Positions 6,476 through 62,847 of a stretch of 64,000 nt of DNA are shown here, one piece after another (the stretch's first letter is position 1; every line of letters starts with the position of its first letter). Origin of the DNA: Candidatus Calditenuis fumarioli (GTDB lineage: Archaea > Thermoproteota > Nitrososphaeria_A > Caldarchaeales > Calditenuaceae); NCBI GenBank assembly GCA_030059665.1, contig JANVYR010000001.1, positions 512,001-576,000 of the forward strand, written 5' to 3'. The position numbers were made by a program, and so were the translations under genes. Under the pieces are notes generated by a model. It did no database searches, had not been told where the DNA came from, and saw nothing but the letters and a program-made list of their open reading frames with translations.

Positions 6476-7002
6476 GGGAGCAGGTCGAGCGGAAGGAGAA
6501 CCCGATGAGGAGGCTCAGGATAGAGAAGGTCGTGGTCAACTGCAGCGTCGGCGAGGCCGGCGCGAGGCTGGAGAGGGCTGTTAAGATCCTGGAGCAGCTC
6601 ACCGGTCAGAAGCCGTCGATCAGGAAGGCGAAGAAGACGATCAAGGGCTTCGGGATACACAAGGGAGAGCCCATCGCCGCGATGGTGACCCTCCGGAAGG
6701 AGAAGGCAGTTGAGTTCCTTCGAAGGGCCTTCGAGGCGGTGAGGAACACGATACGCGCGGAGAACTTCGACGAGTACGGGAACTTCGCCTTCGGCGTCAA
6801 GGAGCACCTCGACATGCCGGGGACCAAGTACGATCCGGAGCTGGGCATCATCGGGTTCGACGTGATAGTTCACATCTCGAGGCCCGGGCTGAGGGTGACG
6901 AGGAGGAGGATCAGGAGGTCGCGTATCCCGAGGGGCCACAGGCCCACAAAAGAGGAGGCGATTGAGTTCGTCCGCAGCACCTTCGGCGTCAACGTGGTCT
7001 GA
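6457..7002 (+). CDS. rpl5: 50S ribosomal protein L5
   Basis: NPMRRLRIEKVVVN, LTGQKP, VTLR, GNFAFG, YDPELGIIGFD. Confidence 0.97.
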   Translation: MAEAAVREQVERKENPMRRLRIEKVVVNCSVGEAGARLERAVKILEQLTGQKPSIRKAKKTIKGFGIHKGEPIAAMVTLRKEKAVEFLRRAFEAVRNTIRAENFDEYGNFAFGVKEHLDMPGTKYDPELGIIGFDVIVHISRPGLRVTRRRIRRSRIPRGHRPTKEEAIEFVRSTFGVNVV

Positions 7003-7091
7003 GCGATCGCCCGCTTTCTCACGGAAGACCTTGACCCGTGCAACGGGTTGACTTAATAGCGGCTGTTGTCGTCCGATGGCAGGAGGTCGAA

Positions 7092-7907
7092 TTGGAGGAG
7101 AGGTGGGCGAGGAGGCTCGAGAGGCAGGAGGCTATAGCCGAGGTCAGGAACCGATTCCTCGAGAAGGACAGGAGCCTCGACAGGGCGGCTTTCGAGGAGG
7201 TCTTCGACGCCCAGACGCTCCTCACGGTCTACAGGCTGATGAAGAGGGGACTGATCGAGGACTTCCACGGCGTCATCAGCGCAGGAAAGGAGTCGAGGAT
7301 CTACCACGCCACGAGCAAGCAGAGAGAGGAGCTCGCGGTGAAGATCTACCTCGTCAACAACAGGGAGTTTCGGAGGGGCAGGCTCGAGTACCTCCAGACC
7401 GACGTCAGGCTTGGAAGGATAGGAGGGTCTGTGAGGAAGCTGATCTACGCGTGGGCCAAGAGGGAGTTCCTGAACCTGAAGCAGGCACACGAGGCGGGGG
7501 TTCCAGTACCTAAGCCCCACGCCGTCGCCAACAACGTTTTGGTGATGAGCTTCCTCGGTGAGAACGGACAGAGGTACCCGCTGCTCCGCGAGACCTCCCT
7601 TGGAGCCGACGAGTACGCTGTGATCTACCGCAGGGTGGTTGAGGGCATGAGGGCCCTCTACAGAGGAGCTGAGCTGATCCACGGCGACCTCAGCGAGTAC
7701 AACGTCATGTGCGGCCCAGACCTCTCCGTCTACTTCATCGACCTCTCACAGGCGGTGCTGATCCACCATCCACGTGCCGACTTCTACCTGATGAGGGACG
7801 TCCGGAACGTCAACAGGTTCTTCGCCTCGAAGGGGGTCGAGGTCCTCGGGGAGGAAGAGCTCTTCGAGCAGGTCGCCGGCCGGAAACCCTACGAACCGGT
7901 CGCGTGA
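7092..7907 (+). CDS. rio1: RIO1-type serine kinase
   Basis: ISAGKESRIY, AVKIY, WAKREFLNL, IHGDLSEYN, IDLSQAV. Likely TTG start at 7092 after AGGAGGT. Confidence 0.92.
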   Translation: MEERWARRLERQEAIAEVRNRFLEKDRSLDRAAFEEVFDAQTLLTVYRLMKRGLIEDFHGVISAGKESRIYHATSKQREELAVKIYLVNNREFRRGRLEYLQTDVRLGRIGGSVRKLIYAWAKREFLNLKQAHEAGVPVPKPHAVANNVLVMSFLGENGQRYPLLRETSLGADEYAVIYRRVVEGMRALYRGAELIHGDLSEYNVMCGPDLSVYFIDLSQAVLIHHPRADFYLMRDVRNVNRFFASKGVEVLGEEELFEQVAGRKPYEPVA

Positions 7908-58997: not shown

Positions 58998-59058
58998 AAA
59001 AACCGTCCCGATCTACGCCAAGCTACGCTTATATTTTGGACGTCTTAGGGGTTGGAGC

Positions 59059-59493
59059 ATGAGAGCGGAAGACAGGAGTCGGATGTTCGCGTTACTGCTG
59101 CTGGCGCTGGCGGCGGTCGTTACGGTGGCATCGGCAGCATTGGCGGTGCAGATATCCCTCGGCAGCTCGGACGTCAACCAGCTGGGCGGTACCGGCCTCG
59201 TAGACGTCACCTGCCCTGCCAACCCCTGCCAGGTGACGAAGGTCAGCTGGGTCCTGACGTCTTCAGCACCATACAAGGTCGATAAGGTGAGCGTCCAGTG
59301 GACGACCGCCAAGTCGTCGGGCGCAAACTACATGGTCTACGTGGTCCTCTACGACAGCTCCAACAACGTCAAATCCAGCGGTTCCGCGACCCAGGCAGCC
59401 GCATCAGGCGCGGTTACGACCCAGGTCGACGTGGCTCCGGACGTGGACCCCAAGGACGTCTACAGGGTCGAGGTAGTGATAGTTGAGCAGTAA
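59059..59493 (+). CDS. Secreted beta-rich pilin/TasA-like protein 1 (candidate major subunit)
   Basis: Signal peptide ending AALA, then VQISLGSSDVNQLGG; CPANPC; VVLYDSSNNVKSSGS. Confidence 0.8.
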   Translation: MRAEDRSRMFALLLLALAAVVTVASAALAVQISLGSSDVNQLGGTGLVDVTCPANPCQVTKVSWVLTSSAPYKVDKVSVQWTTAKSSGANYMVYVVLYDSSNNVKSSGSATQAAASGAVTTQVDVAPDVDPKDVYRVEVVIVEQ

Positions 59494-59523
59494 GCCGCTG
59501 CCACCTATGTTGTCGGTCGCGAC

Positions 59524-59940
59524 TTGAACCGAAGGTATATCGCTGTTTTTTCCATCGCGCTATTCCTCATAACGCTCACAGCCTTCTCCGTCTCGATATC
59601 CATCACGACCGTAGACCCTTTGGCCAGCAGGGCCTACGTCGAGTACGTGCTCGGAAAGGCGTCGGGTACAAATCCTCCTGAGATCAGGAGCGTATTGCTG
59701 AACGGTAATCCAGTCAGCAGCGTTAGCATCTCGTTTTACATGAGAGCATTACTTCAATTCATTAGGGTGACTGTTACGTTGTACGACGACAACGGTATTG
59801 TCATAGGTTCGGGCAGCGACTGCGGATTTTACATATTTCCAGGTATCCAAAGTATGACTGTTCCGGTCTCTCCAAATCCACTGCCATCACAGGTGGCCCG
59901 GGTCGAAACCTCGATACAGGTGGTGCTTCTATGCAATTGA
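59524..59940 (+). CDS. Secreted pilin-like protein 2
   Basis: Signal peptide ending TAFS, then VSISITTVDPLAS; VTLYDDNGIVIGSGS; two Cys. Confidence 0.78.
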   Translation: MNRRYIAVFSIALFLITLTAFSVSISITTVDPLASRAYVEYVLGKASGTNPPEIRSVLLNGNPVSSVSISFYMRALLQFIRVTVTLYDDNGIVIGSGSDCGFYIFPGIQSMTVPVSPNPLPSQVARVETSIQVVLLCN

Positions 59941-60329
59941 GGGCCGTATCGCTTTCAATGTTGTTGCTTTTGATGGCATCGGTATCGGTTACAGCTCTCA
60001 GCATTGCGGTCTCGCTCACTTCCTCAAACGTCGACAGACTGGGAGCCGGAGGGTCCAATGTGCCGAAATACAATTTCTGGGTGACGTCCCTCTCCGTAAC
60101 GGTCAACAACGATAACGTGAACAACAGGATCAGGGGAGTAACAGCGTACATCGGGATCAACGTTCCCGGAACTTATGTGGTGACCGTGTCGGTGAACGAC
60201 AATCCCTCGTGTAGCGCCAGCACGACCGCCAGCCTTCCGGGTACCGTGACCGTAACACTGCCCAACGTCGCCGCGTGTAACTACGTTAGTGCAGGCGCGC
60301 CCGTCAGGATAGAGGTCAGGCCTCCATGA
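59931..60329 (+). CDS. Secreted pilin-like protein 3
   Basis: Signal peptide ending TALS, then IAVSLTSSNVDRLGAGG; two Cys. Confidence 0.78.
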   Translation: MQLRAVSLSMLLLLMASVSVTALSIAVSLTSSNVDRLGAGGSNVPKYNFWVTSLSVTVNNDNVNNRIRGVTAYIGINVPGTYVVTVSVNDNPSCSASTTASLPGTVTVTLPNVAACNYVSAGAPVRIEVRPP

Positions 60330-61024
60330 CGCGAGCCGTTGCCAGGAATCTGGTCCTGATCCTTGTAATTGCGTCTGCGGTCCTCCTAACGGCCCAATCC
60401 CTTCCAGGGCTGATGCTCCTCCACGTCGTCAGCGGATCGATGGAGCCCAACGTCCCTATCGGCAGCATGGTGTTGCTGGCGAGAGGGGACAAGCCCTCGG
60501 TGGGCGACGTGGCAGCGTACCTGCTGGAGGTCCAGGGCAGGCGGTACGTGATACTCCACCGGGTGACCGGGGTGACCGAGGACGGAAGGTACGTGTTCTC
60601 GGCCGATGCGGGCGATCCTTACGGTACCGACCTGGTGGAGCCCGAGAGGGTGCTCGGCCGGATGCTGATCGCCATACCCTACCTCGGGTACGTCGTGCCC
60701 TACGCTCCGGTACTGGTGGGCCTTGCTCTGCTCCTCTCCCTCGTGCCCAAGAGGACGAGGCTCCACGTTCATGGTCCGGTCGATCCGGGCTTCCTGAGGT
60801 ACCTCCCGGCGGTTCTCGTGCCGCTCACGCTGCTGCTCCCGGTGAAGGGCCTCCCCATGATGCTCGGTCCCGCGTACGCCGTCCTGACGCTCGCGATCTA
60901 CGCGATCACGCTCCGCTTCGAGCGAGAGATCAGACACGCGGACCTCGTTTACGCGCTCCTCTCGATCTCGGTACTGGTCTCGATAGACTACGCAAGGCTC
61001 GCTGCTCTCCTATGGGGACTGTGA
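60326..61024 (+). CDS. sipW: SipW/ER-type signal peptidase I (S26)
   Basis: N-terminal TM, VVSGSMEP (Ser), VGD, LHRV (His), IPYLGY, further TM helices. Confidence 0.85.
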   Translation: MTRAVARNLVLILVIASAVLLTAQSLPGLMLLHVVSGSMEPNVPIGSMVLLARGDKPSVGDVAAYLLEVQGRRYVILHRVTGVTEDGRYVFSADAGDPYGTDLVEPERVLGRMLIAIPYLGYVVPYAPVLVGLALLLSLVPKRTRLHVHGPVDPGFLRYLPAVLVPLTLLLPVKGLPMMLGPAYAVLTLAIYAITLRFEREIRHADLVYALLSISVLVSIDYARLAALLWGL

Positions 61025-62470
61025 AACAGCGGGGGAGAGGATCTCACCGCACTCCGGGCAGACGTTGGCGTCGGCGGGGACCTCGTGCCCCTTGGAGCAT
61101 AGCCTGATCCTCAACACCTGATCCTCCTCTTGCTTCTCCATGGAGCCTGTTCGAGGCTTCGACCTCCCCTTCCTGCTGGGCCTGTACAGCAGCAGGAATC
61201 CAGATCCTGCGATGACCGCCGCCAGCAGCCCTATGTTCACGAGGTCTGGCTCCGTTACGTAAACCGCCTCGACCCTGATCGGCCTGTCGACTACGACCCT
61301 GATCGCGCCGTTCCGGTGCTCGAGCGTCCCTATGTTGCCCACGAAGCCCGTCAGCCTCGGCCTGAAGAACGCGTTGCCGGGCGGGTTGGGGACGGCCATC
61401 AGCGTCGCCTCAGATCCCTCGTCGTACCACCCCGTACCACCGGCGCCGTACCTGCCCCTGACCTCGACGTAGTACTGCCTCACGTAGACCGCCTCCGCCC
61501 TGACAGGGCCTTTCACTTCGAGCTCTAACCTCTCCTGTGGCGGCAGCAGGGACGAGTTCCAACCGACGAACCGCAGCCTGACCTCGTTCTCGCGCAGCAC
61601 TACCTGGGATTCGACCGAGACCGCGACCTTCTCACCAGCGGTGACCCAGCCGTCGTAGACGACGCCCTTCGGCCCCGTCAGAACAACCCTGTACTGGCGC
61701 TCGTAGACCGGCCTGACCACGTGGGGGCCTCTCACCTCGAGCACGGCCACGTTCGAGACCACCCTGTTGACGATCGCGGGCACCGAGCCGACCGATTCCC
61801 AGCCGGTCAGCACCAGCCTCTCCCCCTCTGAGAGCTGTATCACCGATGGCGCGCTCAGCAGCACCGTCTGGCCCAGCCTGTACCAGCCCGATCCGTTGAC
61901 CACAGCGTAAGGTGAGACGCCCTGAACGTAGTACTCCCGGACGTAGACCGCCTCGATCCTGAGAGGTCTGGAGACGTAGACGCGGTTCGACGAGTTGAAC
62001 GGGTACTCGCCGAGGCTCCAGCGGACGAACCTCAGCCTGACCCCATCGGACTCGTAGTGAACCGACGGCGCCACAAGCTCCACAACGGTACCCTCCTCGA
62101 CCCAGAAGGACCTCCTGAGGTTCTCCAGCTCCGAGTCGATCACGACCAAGTACTCGGCCTTGTAGACCGCGACGAGGGCCTTGACGTTCCTGAGCGTCAC
62201 GCACGGGTCCCTTATGGTCCAGTTCCAGCCGACGAACCTGAGACGTGCGTCCACGTCGACGTACTGTACCGGAGGCGCGCAGACCGTTGTGCCCTCGGAG
62301 GCCCTGAAGGGAACCCTCGCGGGCGCCCCCTCATGGAGGACCGTGACCGGGTAGTTCGAGGTTATTTGGACCTGTCCCTCCTCCGCCGTGGCCGTGGGGG
62401 CCAGCGTAGCCAGAGCCGCGAGCGCTAGGACCGCAAGCGAGATCAGCCAGCACCAGCCGGTCGCTTTCAA
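61010..62470 (-). CDS. Membrane-anchored surface protein with five ~75-80 aa repeats and a C-terminal zinc ribbon
   Basis: TTG 62470 start, signal peptide, repeats with GW/FW...RLRF-x-GW...AVY-x-R-[EQ]Y, TM helix, CSKGH...CPECG. Confidence 0.82.
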   Translation of the reverse strand: MKATGWCWLISLAVLALAALATLAPTATAEEGQVQITSNYPVTVLHEGAPARVPFRASEGTTVCAPPVQYVDVDARLRFVGWNWTIRDPCVTLRNVKALVAVYKAEYLVVIDSELENLRRSFWVEEGTVVELVAPSVHYESDGVRLRFVRWSLGEYPFNSSNRVYVSRPLRIEAVYVREYYVQGVSPYAVVNGSGWYRLGQTVLLSAPSVIQLSEGERLVLTGWESVGSVPAIVNRVVSNVAVLEVRGPHVVRPVYERQYRVVLTGPKGVVYDGWVTAGEKVAVSVESQVVLRENEVRLRFVGWNSSLLPPQERLELEVKGPVRAEAVYVRQYYVEVRGRYGAGGTGWYDEGSEATLMAVPNPPGNAFFRPRLTGFVGNIGTLEHRNGAIRVVVDRPIRVEAVYVTEPDLVNIGLLAAVIAGSGFLLLYRPSRKGRSKPRTGSMEKQEEDQVLRIRLCSKGHEVPADANVCPECGEILSPAVSQSP

Positions 62471-62614
62471 ACCTAATTCATCGAACCGGGATGCCGTAAA
62501 ATAATTTTGTGCAGCATAGTCAGGCAGGCGGTTGGCCGGCATACTACAGGGGTGTTTCCGATCGGTTTCTTGCGGTGACCTCGAACCCCTCGAACGACCT
62601 CTTTCTGGCCTCCG

Positions 62615-62706
62615 TGGGGCCGGTGGGATTTGAACCCACGACCTCCCGGGTTCGCGTCCCTCACGATCCCGAGCCGGGCGTCCACTCCATGCTAGACTAC
62701 GGCCCC
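62615..62706 (-). tRNA. tRNA-Pro(CGG) with a 17-nt intron at 37/38 (62651-62667)
   Basis: GGGGCCG/CGGCCCC-A; CCCGG-CT-CGG-G-[ATCGTGAGGGACGCGAA]-C-CCGGG. Confidence 0.92.
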
Positions 62707-62847
62707 CTCGATCCACCTGCGCTCCCACCATTTGATCTTGACTCCGCTCTATTCGGAGCTCCACCGGCGCTTCTCCTTGCCACAACTCACCCTGACCGCT
62801 CTGCGGAAAAACCTATAATCGTCCCCTCTCGATCACCTATCACTGGA

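Follow-up and report, generated by a model that had tools for sequence, protein, structure and literature searches.

Since 2022, donor-strand fibres (TasA, AbpA, threads, Tafi, cannulae and AbpX) have been the main route, other than that of type IV pili, to archaeal filaments serving biofilm formation and adhesion. To our knowledge, each new donor-strand family has so far come from cryo-electron microscopy (cryo-EM) of a cultured organism, and we know of essentially no description of the surface structures of Caldarchaeales (formerly Aigarchaeota), which are uncultured archaea of hot springs. Here, we consider a locus of one member of this order, Candidatus Calditenuis fumarioli, lying within a stretch of 64,000 nucleotides (referred to below as the window), in which genes of three small secreted proteins (g1, g2 and g3) are accompanied by genes of a signal peptidase I (SPase I) and of a B-repeat-like membrane protein. 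We are highly confident that this locus is a peptidase-coupled module of secreted subunits. With moderate confidence, we propose that its five genes serve a cell-surface fibre which is not a type IV pilus and which is assembled by strand donation.

Several described systems are close to this locus. Tafi and taf-like clusters, known from Haloarcula, Natrinema, Thermococcales and Archaeoglobales, encode TafG (DUF5305) and proteins for the tip and the anchor besides two or three DUF1102 subunits, and the TafD peptidase is genetically required for the processing of TafA (PMC11821415). For Natrinema TafE, assembly by strand donation was reported in a cryo-EM study (PMC12337348). In the AbpX system of Pyrodictium, other archaea and bacteria, an SPase I of the TIGR02228 type is encoded directly downstream of abpX, and larger loci contain minor subunits, tip proteins, accessory factors and DUF5305 (10.64898/2026.01.04.697558). 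Since the Tafi and AbpX loci pair subunits with a dedicated SPase, the operon logic discussed here is not new to archaea. Polymerisation of TasA proceeds by donor-strand exchange (PMC9674648), and both the Sulfolobus thread (Saci_0406) and Pyrobaculum AbpA are PibD-independent, processed by Sec and SPase I, and joined by an N-terminal donor strand (PMC9715654, PMC9245690). An earlier interpretation of the window (the sequence-only reading) assumed that AbpA is paired with a SipW-type peptidase; this was mistaken, as the Pyrobaculum paper reports no dedicated peptidase gene close to the ABP operon (PMC9245690).

Secreted paralogues linked to a signal peptidase

According to the open reading frames (ORFs) and their translations, four co-directional genes occupy positions 59059-61024, three of them encoding small secreted proteins and the last one SPase I. 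The sequence-only reading stopped at this four-gene unit and omitted the conserved repeat-protein gene at 61010-62470 (-), with which the unit comprises five genes. In coordinates of the window, the features are:

59027..59036, + strand: A/T-rich TATA-like box (CTTATATTTT), 23-32 nucleotides (nt) 5' of the g1 start codon, read from the sequence
59059..59493, + strand: g1, secreted subunit, 144 amino acids (aa), ATG start
59524..59940, + strand: g2, paralogous secreted subunit, 138 aa, TTG start
59931..60329, + strand: g3, paralogous secreted subunit, 132 aa, ATG start
60326..61024, + strand: cluster signal peptidase I of the archaeal/endoplasmic reticulum (ER), or Sec11, type, 232 aa, ATG start
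61010..62470, - strand: B-repeat-like membrane protein, the fifth conserved gene, 486 aa

A gap of 30 nt separates g1 from g2, while g2 overlaps g3 by 10 nt and g3 overlaps the peptidase gene by 4 nt; the box CTTATATTTT is a possible archaeal promoter. The source assembly amounts to 1.57 Mb in three contigs, and near-identical DNA was found in hot-spring metagenomes of several studies, with a word share of 0.8-0.98 for the locus in metagenomes of hot-spring mats.

Each of the three subunits bears one N-terminal hydrophobic stretch ending with A-x-[AS], after which a common motif follows (AALA|VQISL...VNQLGG in g1, TAFS|VSISI...VDPLAS in g2 and TALS|IAVSL...VDRLGAGG in g3). Thus, three consecutive secreted genes with a common N-terminal motif are present as originally described. 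Cleavage of g1, predicted at ALA|VQISL, would leave a mature protein of 115 aa with an isoelectric point (pI) of 4.5. Mature g3 (108 aa, pI 8.8) has in common with g1 the N-terminal V-x-x-LGG(T)G motif; g2 has LP/RP-type residues where the GGTG motif stands, and a conserved C-terminal Cys. The V-x-V-x-LYD...SGS block, attributed earlier to the first two proteins, was indeed seen in the comparison of g1 with g2. The count of two Cys per protein was also right, and their positions are non-homologous (52/57 in g1, 100/137 in g2 and 94/116 in g3). The cysteine pair of g1, CPANPC, is invariant, and among 79 g1 homologues V30, I32, C52 and C57 do not vary.

Pairwise BLASTP comparisons among g1, g2 and g3 gave weak matches (E 1e-3, 4e-4 and 0.2). 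Profiles built from the orthologues aligned over the full length in hhalign (E 1.3e-15 for g1/g2, 1.6e-13 for g1/g3 and 3.2e-11 for g2/g3), and the joint alignment of the three families is collinear. Because the orthologue profiles match full length, the paralogy of the three subunits, as claimed at the outset, is real and beyond chance. The most conserved of the paralogues is g1, with 60-67% across families, as compared with about 30% for g2 and g3. Scans of g1-g3 against Pfam and NCBIfam returned only sub-threshold matches, to fn3, Kre9 and FxLYD. Searches of PDB sequences with g1 (phmmer, hmmsearch) gave no match, and in the same database the subunit-family profile found Ig constant domains only, at E>0.06.

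The anatomy of the signal peptides bears on one alternative, namely that the hydrophobic stretches remain uncleaved as signal anchors or belong to the class III (type IV pilin-like) signals, which would make the products membrane-tethered proteins or type IV pilins. It agrees with such an explanation that AlphaFold shows residues 3-26 of g1 as a helix, and that a prepilin peptidase gene (Peptidase_A24) is located near the distant family member L051. However, no [KR]-G/A cleavage motif precedes the hydrophobic stretch and a conserved A-x-[AS] follows it, the linked enzyme is a peptidase of type I rather than type III, and no gene of a pilus ATPase or platform occurs in 54-64 kb of the window. 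We therefore find this alternative very improbable. Its type IV pilin version was rejected on the basis of the signal-peptide anatomy together with the absent machinery genes.

A separate matter is the route of export. Two adjacent arginines are found in several n-regions (N-R-R-Y-I-A in g2, D-R-R-R-K-V in g1 orthologues), and TatC is encoded in the genome; the n-region of g1 of the window reads R-S-R, and its h-region is strongly hydrophobic. Some members of the family may conceivably be exported by the twin-arginine (Tat) system, despite their strongly hydrophobic h-regions.

The genome encodes two copies of SPase I. The cluster copy exceeded the cut-off of the archaeal SPase I model TIGR02228 (54.9 bits as a protein and 55.3 bits in the genome scan, cut-off 51.85), and the other copy, located elsewhere (contig 2, 184117-184464, - strand) and scoring 91.9 bits, is taken as the housekeeping signal peptidase. 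The profile of the cluster peptidase matches human SEC11A/C (E 1e-11 to 1e-12). An alignment of six sequences, the housekeeping copy included, shows no variation at Ser38 (in SGSMEP), His78-Arg79 and Asp94, so that the enzyme has the catalytic Ser and His, no Lys, and the conserved Asp that distinguish the archaeal/ER type. The earlier description of a Ser-His peptidase of the SipW type was thus correct as to the ER/archaeal type and the invariant Ser38 and His78, but went too far in naming SipW, since the SipW equivalog model NF046067 gave 53.1 bits against a cut-off of 190. In the polypeptide, the catalytic domain is flanked by an N-terminal and a second transmembrane (TM) helix, after which comes a conserved extension of about 90 aa, which holds roughly three more hydrophobic helices and is absent from the housekeeping copy.

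In a maximum-likelihood tree, in which one row, on a very long branch, is not a peptidase, the linked SPases branch apart from the housekeeping ones (support 97/81). The housekeeping branch tracks taxonomy, whereas the linked branch does not. Two types of the cluster are present inside the genus of the window, which, together with the conflict between the tree of linked peptidases and taxonomy, suggests horizontal movement of the module. The G+C content amounts to 0.545-0.554 across g2 and g3 (59500-60500 of the window) as compared with about 0.62 in the surroundings, and the genes flanking the module are kept only within the genus; in combination with the tree conflict, these features also suggest that the module moves horizontally.

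Two further arrangements of SPase genes were noted. On contig 2 of the same genome (L001, 1306-3326, - strand), the housekeeping SPase gene overlaps the end of a gene coding for a beta-rich repeat protein of 479 aa that carries a TM helix at its C-terminus and a basic tail; this arrangement is loosely reminiscent of the peptidase and repeat genes of the cluster. In one Caldarchaeales genus, two extra SPase I paralogues are encoded within about 5 kb of one another (L062 (G019:C4), 1746-2255, + strand, and 6819-7337, - strand). Not adjacent to the subunit family, they group with housekeeping enzymes and may serve another module of secreted proteins.

In the protein encoded by the fifth gene, a signal peptide precedes five beta-rich domains in tandem, which are followed by a C-terminal TM helix and a zinc-ribbon tail. 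The tail, predicted from the sequence to be cytoplasmic, occurs in only some orthologues and is variable among relatives. The divergent InlB B-repeat family PF18998 matches four of eight orthologues (best E 8e-5), the window protein itself being unmatched. In the AlphaFold model (predicted local distance difference test, pLDDT, 82.8), the chain looks like a series of beta-grasp domains; it matches structures of linear ubiquitin chains, SHIRT and the InlB B-repeat, though only with low template modelling (TM) scores. The genome contains a single full-length copy. A homologue adjoins the peptidase in 9 of 10 Caldarchaeales loci in which the contig permits it to be seen, and the family is also adjacent in loci L034, L036, L050, L065, L066 and L068. 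In most relatives the repeat gene is co-directional with the peptidase gene and directly downstream of it; in the sub-lineage of the window it is inverted, and here the two genes are convergent with an overlap of 15 nt. Word-index searches with the peptidase and the repeat protein led mostly to Caldarchaeales, with generic names only. Directly upstream of the repeat gene lies a tRNA-Pro(CGG) gene of 93 nt (62614-62706, - strand), long enough to contain an intron. As the mechanical ORF 61010-62785 crosses this tRNA gene, the true start of the repeat gene is at 62470.

Linkage was surveyed in 41 relatives and in a wider, even sample of 401 genomes of the phylum. A second, divergent SPase was present in all 11 genomes with a strong g1 homologue, and 10 of them carry both on one contig. 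The cluster of G037 is divided between two contigs; in G002 and G003 the divergent SPase is located at a contig start, where G003 keeps g2 and g3 too. Genomes devoid of the cluster have one SPase copy (none in two incomplete assemblies), except for three genomes of one genus with other paralogues. The order g1-g2-g3-SPase is retained in three families of Caldarchaeales, and the names found among g1 homologues are Candidatus Caldarchaeum, Nitrososphaerota archaeon and archaeon HR01. Among the 401 phylum genomes, full clusters gather in Caldarchaeales and occur sporadically outside this order; in G053 (locus L065), which represents another family, a subunit, a peptidase and a repeat protein are encoded in a row.

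An exhaustive hidden Markov model search with the joint subunit profile gave 285 representative proteins at E<=1e-3. An N-terminal hydrophobic signal was found in 109 of 111 small full-length matches, and in 74 a G-G-T-G-like motif as well. Giant proteins recovered by the same search were discarded, being generic Y_Y_Y, PKD or Big repeats that score by many summed weak matches to Ig domains. By source name, distant members derive from Desulfurococcales, Thermofilaceae, Chloroflexota and Dehalococcoidia, and in eight of nine distant contexts a peptidase of the same lineage lies beside the subunit genes or one small gene away. The conserved linkage to the peptidase in other genomes, set as a test by the sequence-only reading, was thus found both within the order and in distant loci. 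The distant loci include:

L034: 3 subunit genes, peptidase and repeat protein present; Desulfurococcales metagenome-assembled genome (MAG)
L036: 4 subunit genes, peptidase and repeat protein present; metagenome contig
L050: 5 subunit genes, peptidase and repeat protein present; metagenome contig
L066: 3 subunit genes, peptidase and repeat protein (567 bits) present; Dehalococcoidia
L068: 5 subunit genes, peptidase and repeat protein (300 bits) present; metagenome contig
L038: 1 subunit gene and peptidase, no repeat protein; minimal locus
L051: 1 subunit gene and peptidase, no repeat protein; minimal locus in a Thermofilaceae MAG
L052: 2 subunit genes and an SPase-DUF5305 fusion (63 bits), no repeat protein; a PGF-CTERM gene nearby
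L067: 1 subunit gene, no peptidase, no repeat protein

At L066 (3925-10159; Dehalococcoidia, Chloroflexota) and L068 (4518-10407), the three parts of the module are again present, with several small subunits, a peptidase that belongs to the linked lineage, and a B-repeat protein of much greater length. A gene of an AsnC/Lrp-type regulator adjoins the module at the archaeal locus L034 (4418-4846) and the bacterial locus L066 (2456-2920), and none is found beside the cluster of the window; the Tafi regulator TafB is annotated as Lrp/AsnC as well. Many Caldarchaeales also encode proteins of about 380-440 aa (L014-L017; G008, G009, G011 and others) in which one domain matches the core of the subunits (profile positions of about 50-131). 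Devoid of the N-terminal motif, they are relatives of the small subunits at the level of a domain. In the ESM Atlas, similar proteins were actinobacterial hypothetical proteins of about 130-146 aa (feature score 0.95, TM-score 0.62-0.68).

There is low-level transcription of the module in situ. An index of RNA runs listed none containing the locus. Three metatranscriptomes were sampled as raw reads, and two of them gave zero reads and hence no test. In the third one, from a hot spring, about 5% of the run was read, and 66 reads fell on 7.6 kb, 43 of them at >=99% identity. In all bins with coverage, flanking genes included, first mates mapped to the strand opposite to that of the gene, and such consistency argues for RNA rather than DNA. 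Depth was 0.3-0.9 over the region from g1 to the peptidase gene and 0.6-4.2 over the repeat gene; depths of this kind say nothing reliable on subunit ratios.

Predicted fold, assembly and competing explanations

The monomer of g1 was modelled as an eight-stranded Ig-like sandwich with a mean pLDDT of 80.6 (above 90 in the core and 73-79 in the first 20 mature residues). When the PDB was searched for similar folds (Foldseek, VIA-align), the best match was the Ig domain of an enzyme of glycoside hydrolase family 2 (Z 8.0, root-mean-square deviation 2.9, 89 residues), and adhesin repeats came next. Such generic Ig-like matches do not establish a new fold. Self-complemented FimA is a weak Foldseek match to g1 (E 0.1, TM-score 0.26).

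A prediction of the complex formed by three copies of mature g1 gave an interface score (interaction prediction score from aligned errors, ipSAE) of 0.72, as compared with 0.00 for the best of three controls. The mark of 0.72 is reached by 20 of 30 solved one-chain pairs and by 1 of 23 solved single chains, a calibration that applies only roughly here, the model having been made with our own alignment and with three copies. At least 85% of contacts recur between the runs, and the partner has a pLDDT of at least 82. In the model, residues 43-50 of one copy run antiparallel to residues 134-140 of the next one and touch residues 62 and 98 as well; residues 31-36 likewise belong to the predicted interface. 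The copies are predicted to use different surfaces, which makes the interface a head-to-tail one, as an open polymer requires. Thus, the N-terminal 20 or so residues of g1 are predicted to lie on the last strand of the neighbouring copy, and the model supports strand donation by the g1 N-terminus without establishing it. An oligomeric interface, which the sequence-only reading had expected of the models, is thereby predicted for three g1 copies.

This prediction should be weighed against another explanation, according to which the subunits are soluble or matrix-secreted, non-assembling Ig-like proteins with a binding or protective role, whose unusual signal peptides need a specialised peptidase. 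Both the generic fold, matching Ig domains of carbohydrate enzymes and adhesin repeats, and the lack of any family annotation for the subunits would fit such proteins. Nevertheless, the oligomer prediction of g1 stands well apart from its controls, the amphipathic mature N-terminus is common to the paralogues and to archaea and bacteria, and several subunits are encoded together with a membrane-anchored partner, as in the Tafi and AbpX loci (PMC11821415; 10.64898/2026.01.04.697558). In the light of these features, we consider the non-assembling explanation improbable.

It may also be proposed that the product is a finite surface complex rather than a fibre, i.e. a small hetero-oligomer (an adhesin head or cap) seated on the B-repeat stalk, the peptidase merely maturing its subunits. 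Of all components, the repeat protein is conserved best between domains of life (it scores 135-567 bits in the distant loci), and it resembles a typical surface stalk of tandem beta-grasp repeats; moreover, the three paralogues always occur together in Caldarchaeales, and RNA depth is greater over the stalk gene than over g1. On the other hand, g1 alone passes as a homotrimer with a heterologous (non-symmetric) interface formed through its N-terminal extension, as needed for an open polymer. The number of subunit copies varies from 1 to 6 per locus, which is a better fit to interchangeable subunits of a fibre, and the minimal loci L038 and L051 have one subunit and a peptidase while the stalk gene is absent. 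We regard such a finite complex as unlikely, though less so than non-assembling proteins.

The fibre that we favour could arise in the following way. The three pre-proteins would be exported, most likely by Sec, because the h-regions are strongly hydrophobic and g1 is devoid of a twin arginine. The membrane-bound SPase I of the operon would then cleave after the conserved A-x-[AS], exposing a conserved amphipathic N-terminus ([VIA]-x-[IL]-x-[LVI] ... [LIV]-G-G-T-G-x-V-x-V). Mature Ig-like subunits of 12 kDa would polymerise head to tail, the N-terminal 20 or so residues being placed along the neighbouring subunit's last beta-strand and its core, either by donor-strand complementation or by beta-sheet augmentation, and no ATPase, chaperone or usher would be involved. 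One major and two minor subunits may be envisaged. The shaft would be built of g1, since this gene is first in the operon, its product is conserved at 60-67% across families and it passes the homo-oligomer prediction, whereas g2 and g3 might act as adaptor, tip or terminator subunits. The B-repeat TM protein would be a stalk, serving at the membrane as anchor or nucleation site of the fibre.

A number of observations weigh against the fibre. The monomer model of g1 is a complete sandwich, closed with its own N-terminal strands, although models of donor-strand pilins were reported to close their own sheet as monomers too (PMC9715654). The fold of g1 is a generic Ig-like sandwich, and known donor-strand pilins are absent among the matches listed. 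From the contacts of the oligomer model, insertion into a groove, augmentation of an edge strand and a closed oligomer cannot be told apart. Within g1 orthologues, conservation of the mature N-terminus is not higher than elsewhere (0.69 and 0.67, respectively), and RNA depth over g1 is low and not above that over g2 and g3, which leaves the label of major subunit devoid of support from expression. The distant family member at L067 has no adjacent peptidase. When PDB was searched with the family profile at E<=10, no chain of TasA, AbpA or other pilins was matched. Finally, the module is known here from genes, RNA reads and predicted structures, and neither a filament nor a processing event nor binding has been seen. 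In sum, what stands of the filament proposed in the sequence-only reading is the dedicated, linked peptidase and the predicted head-to-tail oligomer, and homology to TasA or AbpA was detected by neither sequence nor fold.

A more far-reaching version of the proposal, which we hold tentatively and with some doubt, is that the module represents a distinct class of chaperone-free pili in Thermoproteota and Chloroflexota. This class would be made of the smallest known donor-strand pilins (Ig-type, about 12 kDa), non-homologous to TasA, DUF1102 or threads, and would have an ancient SPase lineage of its own and a B-repeat TM platform or anchor, which in the present case, with its putative cytoplasmic zinc ribbon, could couple assembly to the cytoplasm. 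If the proposed fibre is real, the module adds a subunit family defined by sequence, with at least 285 representative clusters and spanning archaea and Chloroflexota, as well as a diagnostic gene signature consisting of the subunits, a peptidase of distinct lineage and a B-repeat membrane protein. It would also provide a small thermostable target for in vitro assembly and structural work, and a handle on how dedicated signal peptidases pair with fibre subunits.

Comparison with known fibre systems

Type 1 and P pili of the chaperone-usher pathway resemble the predicted architecture of the module in having small Ig-fold subunits, an N-terminal extension that completes the sheet of a neighbour and tandem genes of major and minor subunits, but no periplasmic chaperone, usher or outer membrane is involved here. 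With tapA-sipW-tasA, the locus has in common a signal peptidase of the ER/archaeal type in one operon with its secreted fibre subunits. It differs in that the subunits are half the size of TasA, a TapA-like protein is absent and the peptidase failed the SipW equivalog model. Consistently, PF12389 (Peptidase_M73/TasA) had no match in g1-g3, in 35 family members or in the genome, while control genomes gave signal, and no TasA or AbpA chain was among the listed rows of the fold search with the Ig-like g1 model. Among the matches listed, no clear fold link to TasA, AbpA, DUF1102/Tafi or thread subunits emerged, and homology of the subunits to TasA or AbpA was rejected for want of any sequence signal.

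Threads and AbpA are, like the fibre predicted here, archaeal, not of type IV and held by an N-terminal donor strand. Nevertheless, their loci have no dedicated peptidase and their subunits are of about 200 aa. Features of the thread, namely the N-terminal Asp with the YYY motif, the isopeptide bond and heavy glycosylation, are absent from the proteins described here, whose mature forms would start with VQISL, VSISI and IAVSL.

The likeness to AbpX comprises a Cys pair predicted to form a disulfide, an acidic subunit (g1, pI 4.5) and the occurrence in both archaea and bacteria. AbpX, however, is a jelly-roll protein of 163 aa from the TasA superfamily that has Ca2+ sites and a donor strand with Trp2/Glu4, where the present family has V-x-I-x-L and GGTG, and its peptidase is reported to have ten TM helices, as compared with about five in our case.

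The likeness to Tafi involves several paralogous secreted subunits predicted to assemble by strand donation (as was reported for Natrinema TafE), a dedicated multi-TM signal peptidase I within the locus (TafD there) and a membrane-anchored component (TafF there); in addition, non-halophilic versions of taf use Sec-type signals. The distant member L052 is located next to an SPase-DUF5305 fusion, i.e. a TafD/TafG module, and the presence of such a fusion beside distant members suggests a processing module common with Tafi and AbpX. Yet the present subunits are Ig-like and have about 115 aa when mature, as opposed to 150-200 aa in DUF1102 proteins; they do not match TafA/E and contain no N-glycosylation sequons. 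PF06510 (DUF1102) found no match in g1-g3, in 35 family members or in the distant members, and scans of the source genome and of the 401 phylum genomes with it were uninformative, as the controls gave no signal. DUF5305/TafG was not found in the cluster peptidase or in the source genome. The peptidase, with about five hydrophobic helices and no ectodomain in its 232 aa, does not follow the layout of TafD, in which four TM helices are combined with an Ig-like ectodomain at the C-terminus. In the place of TafF, the anchor-like partner here is a B-repeat/zinc-ribbon protein.

A search of the literature returned no paper describing this subunit family. Thus, what is new in the locus is a family of Ig-like subunits devoid of a Pfam or NCBIfam entry and half the size of the known ones, together with a peptidase of different architecture and a B-repeat membrane protein that replaces DUF5305 as the accessory component.

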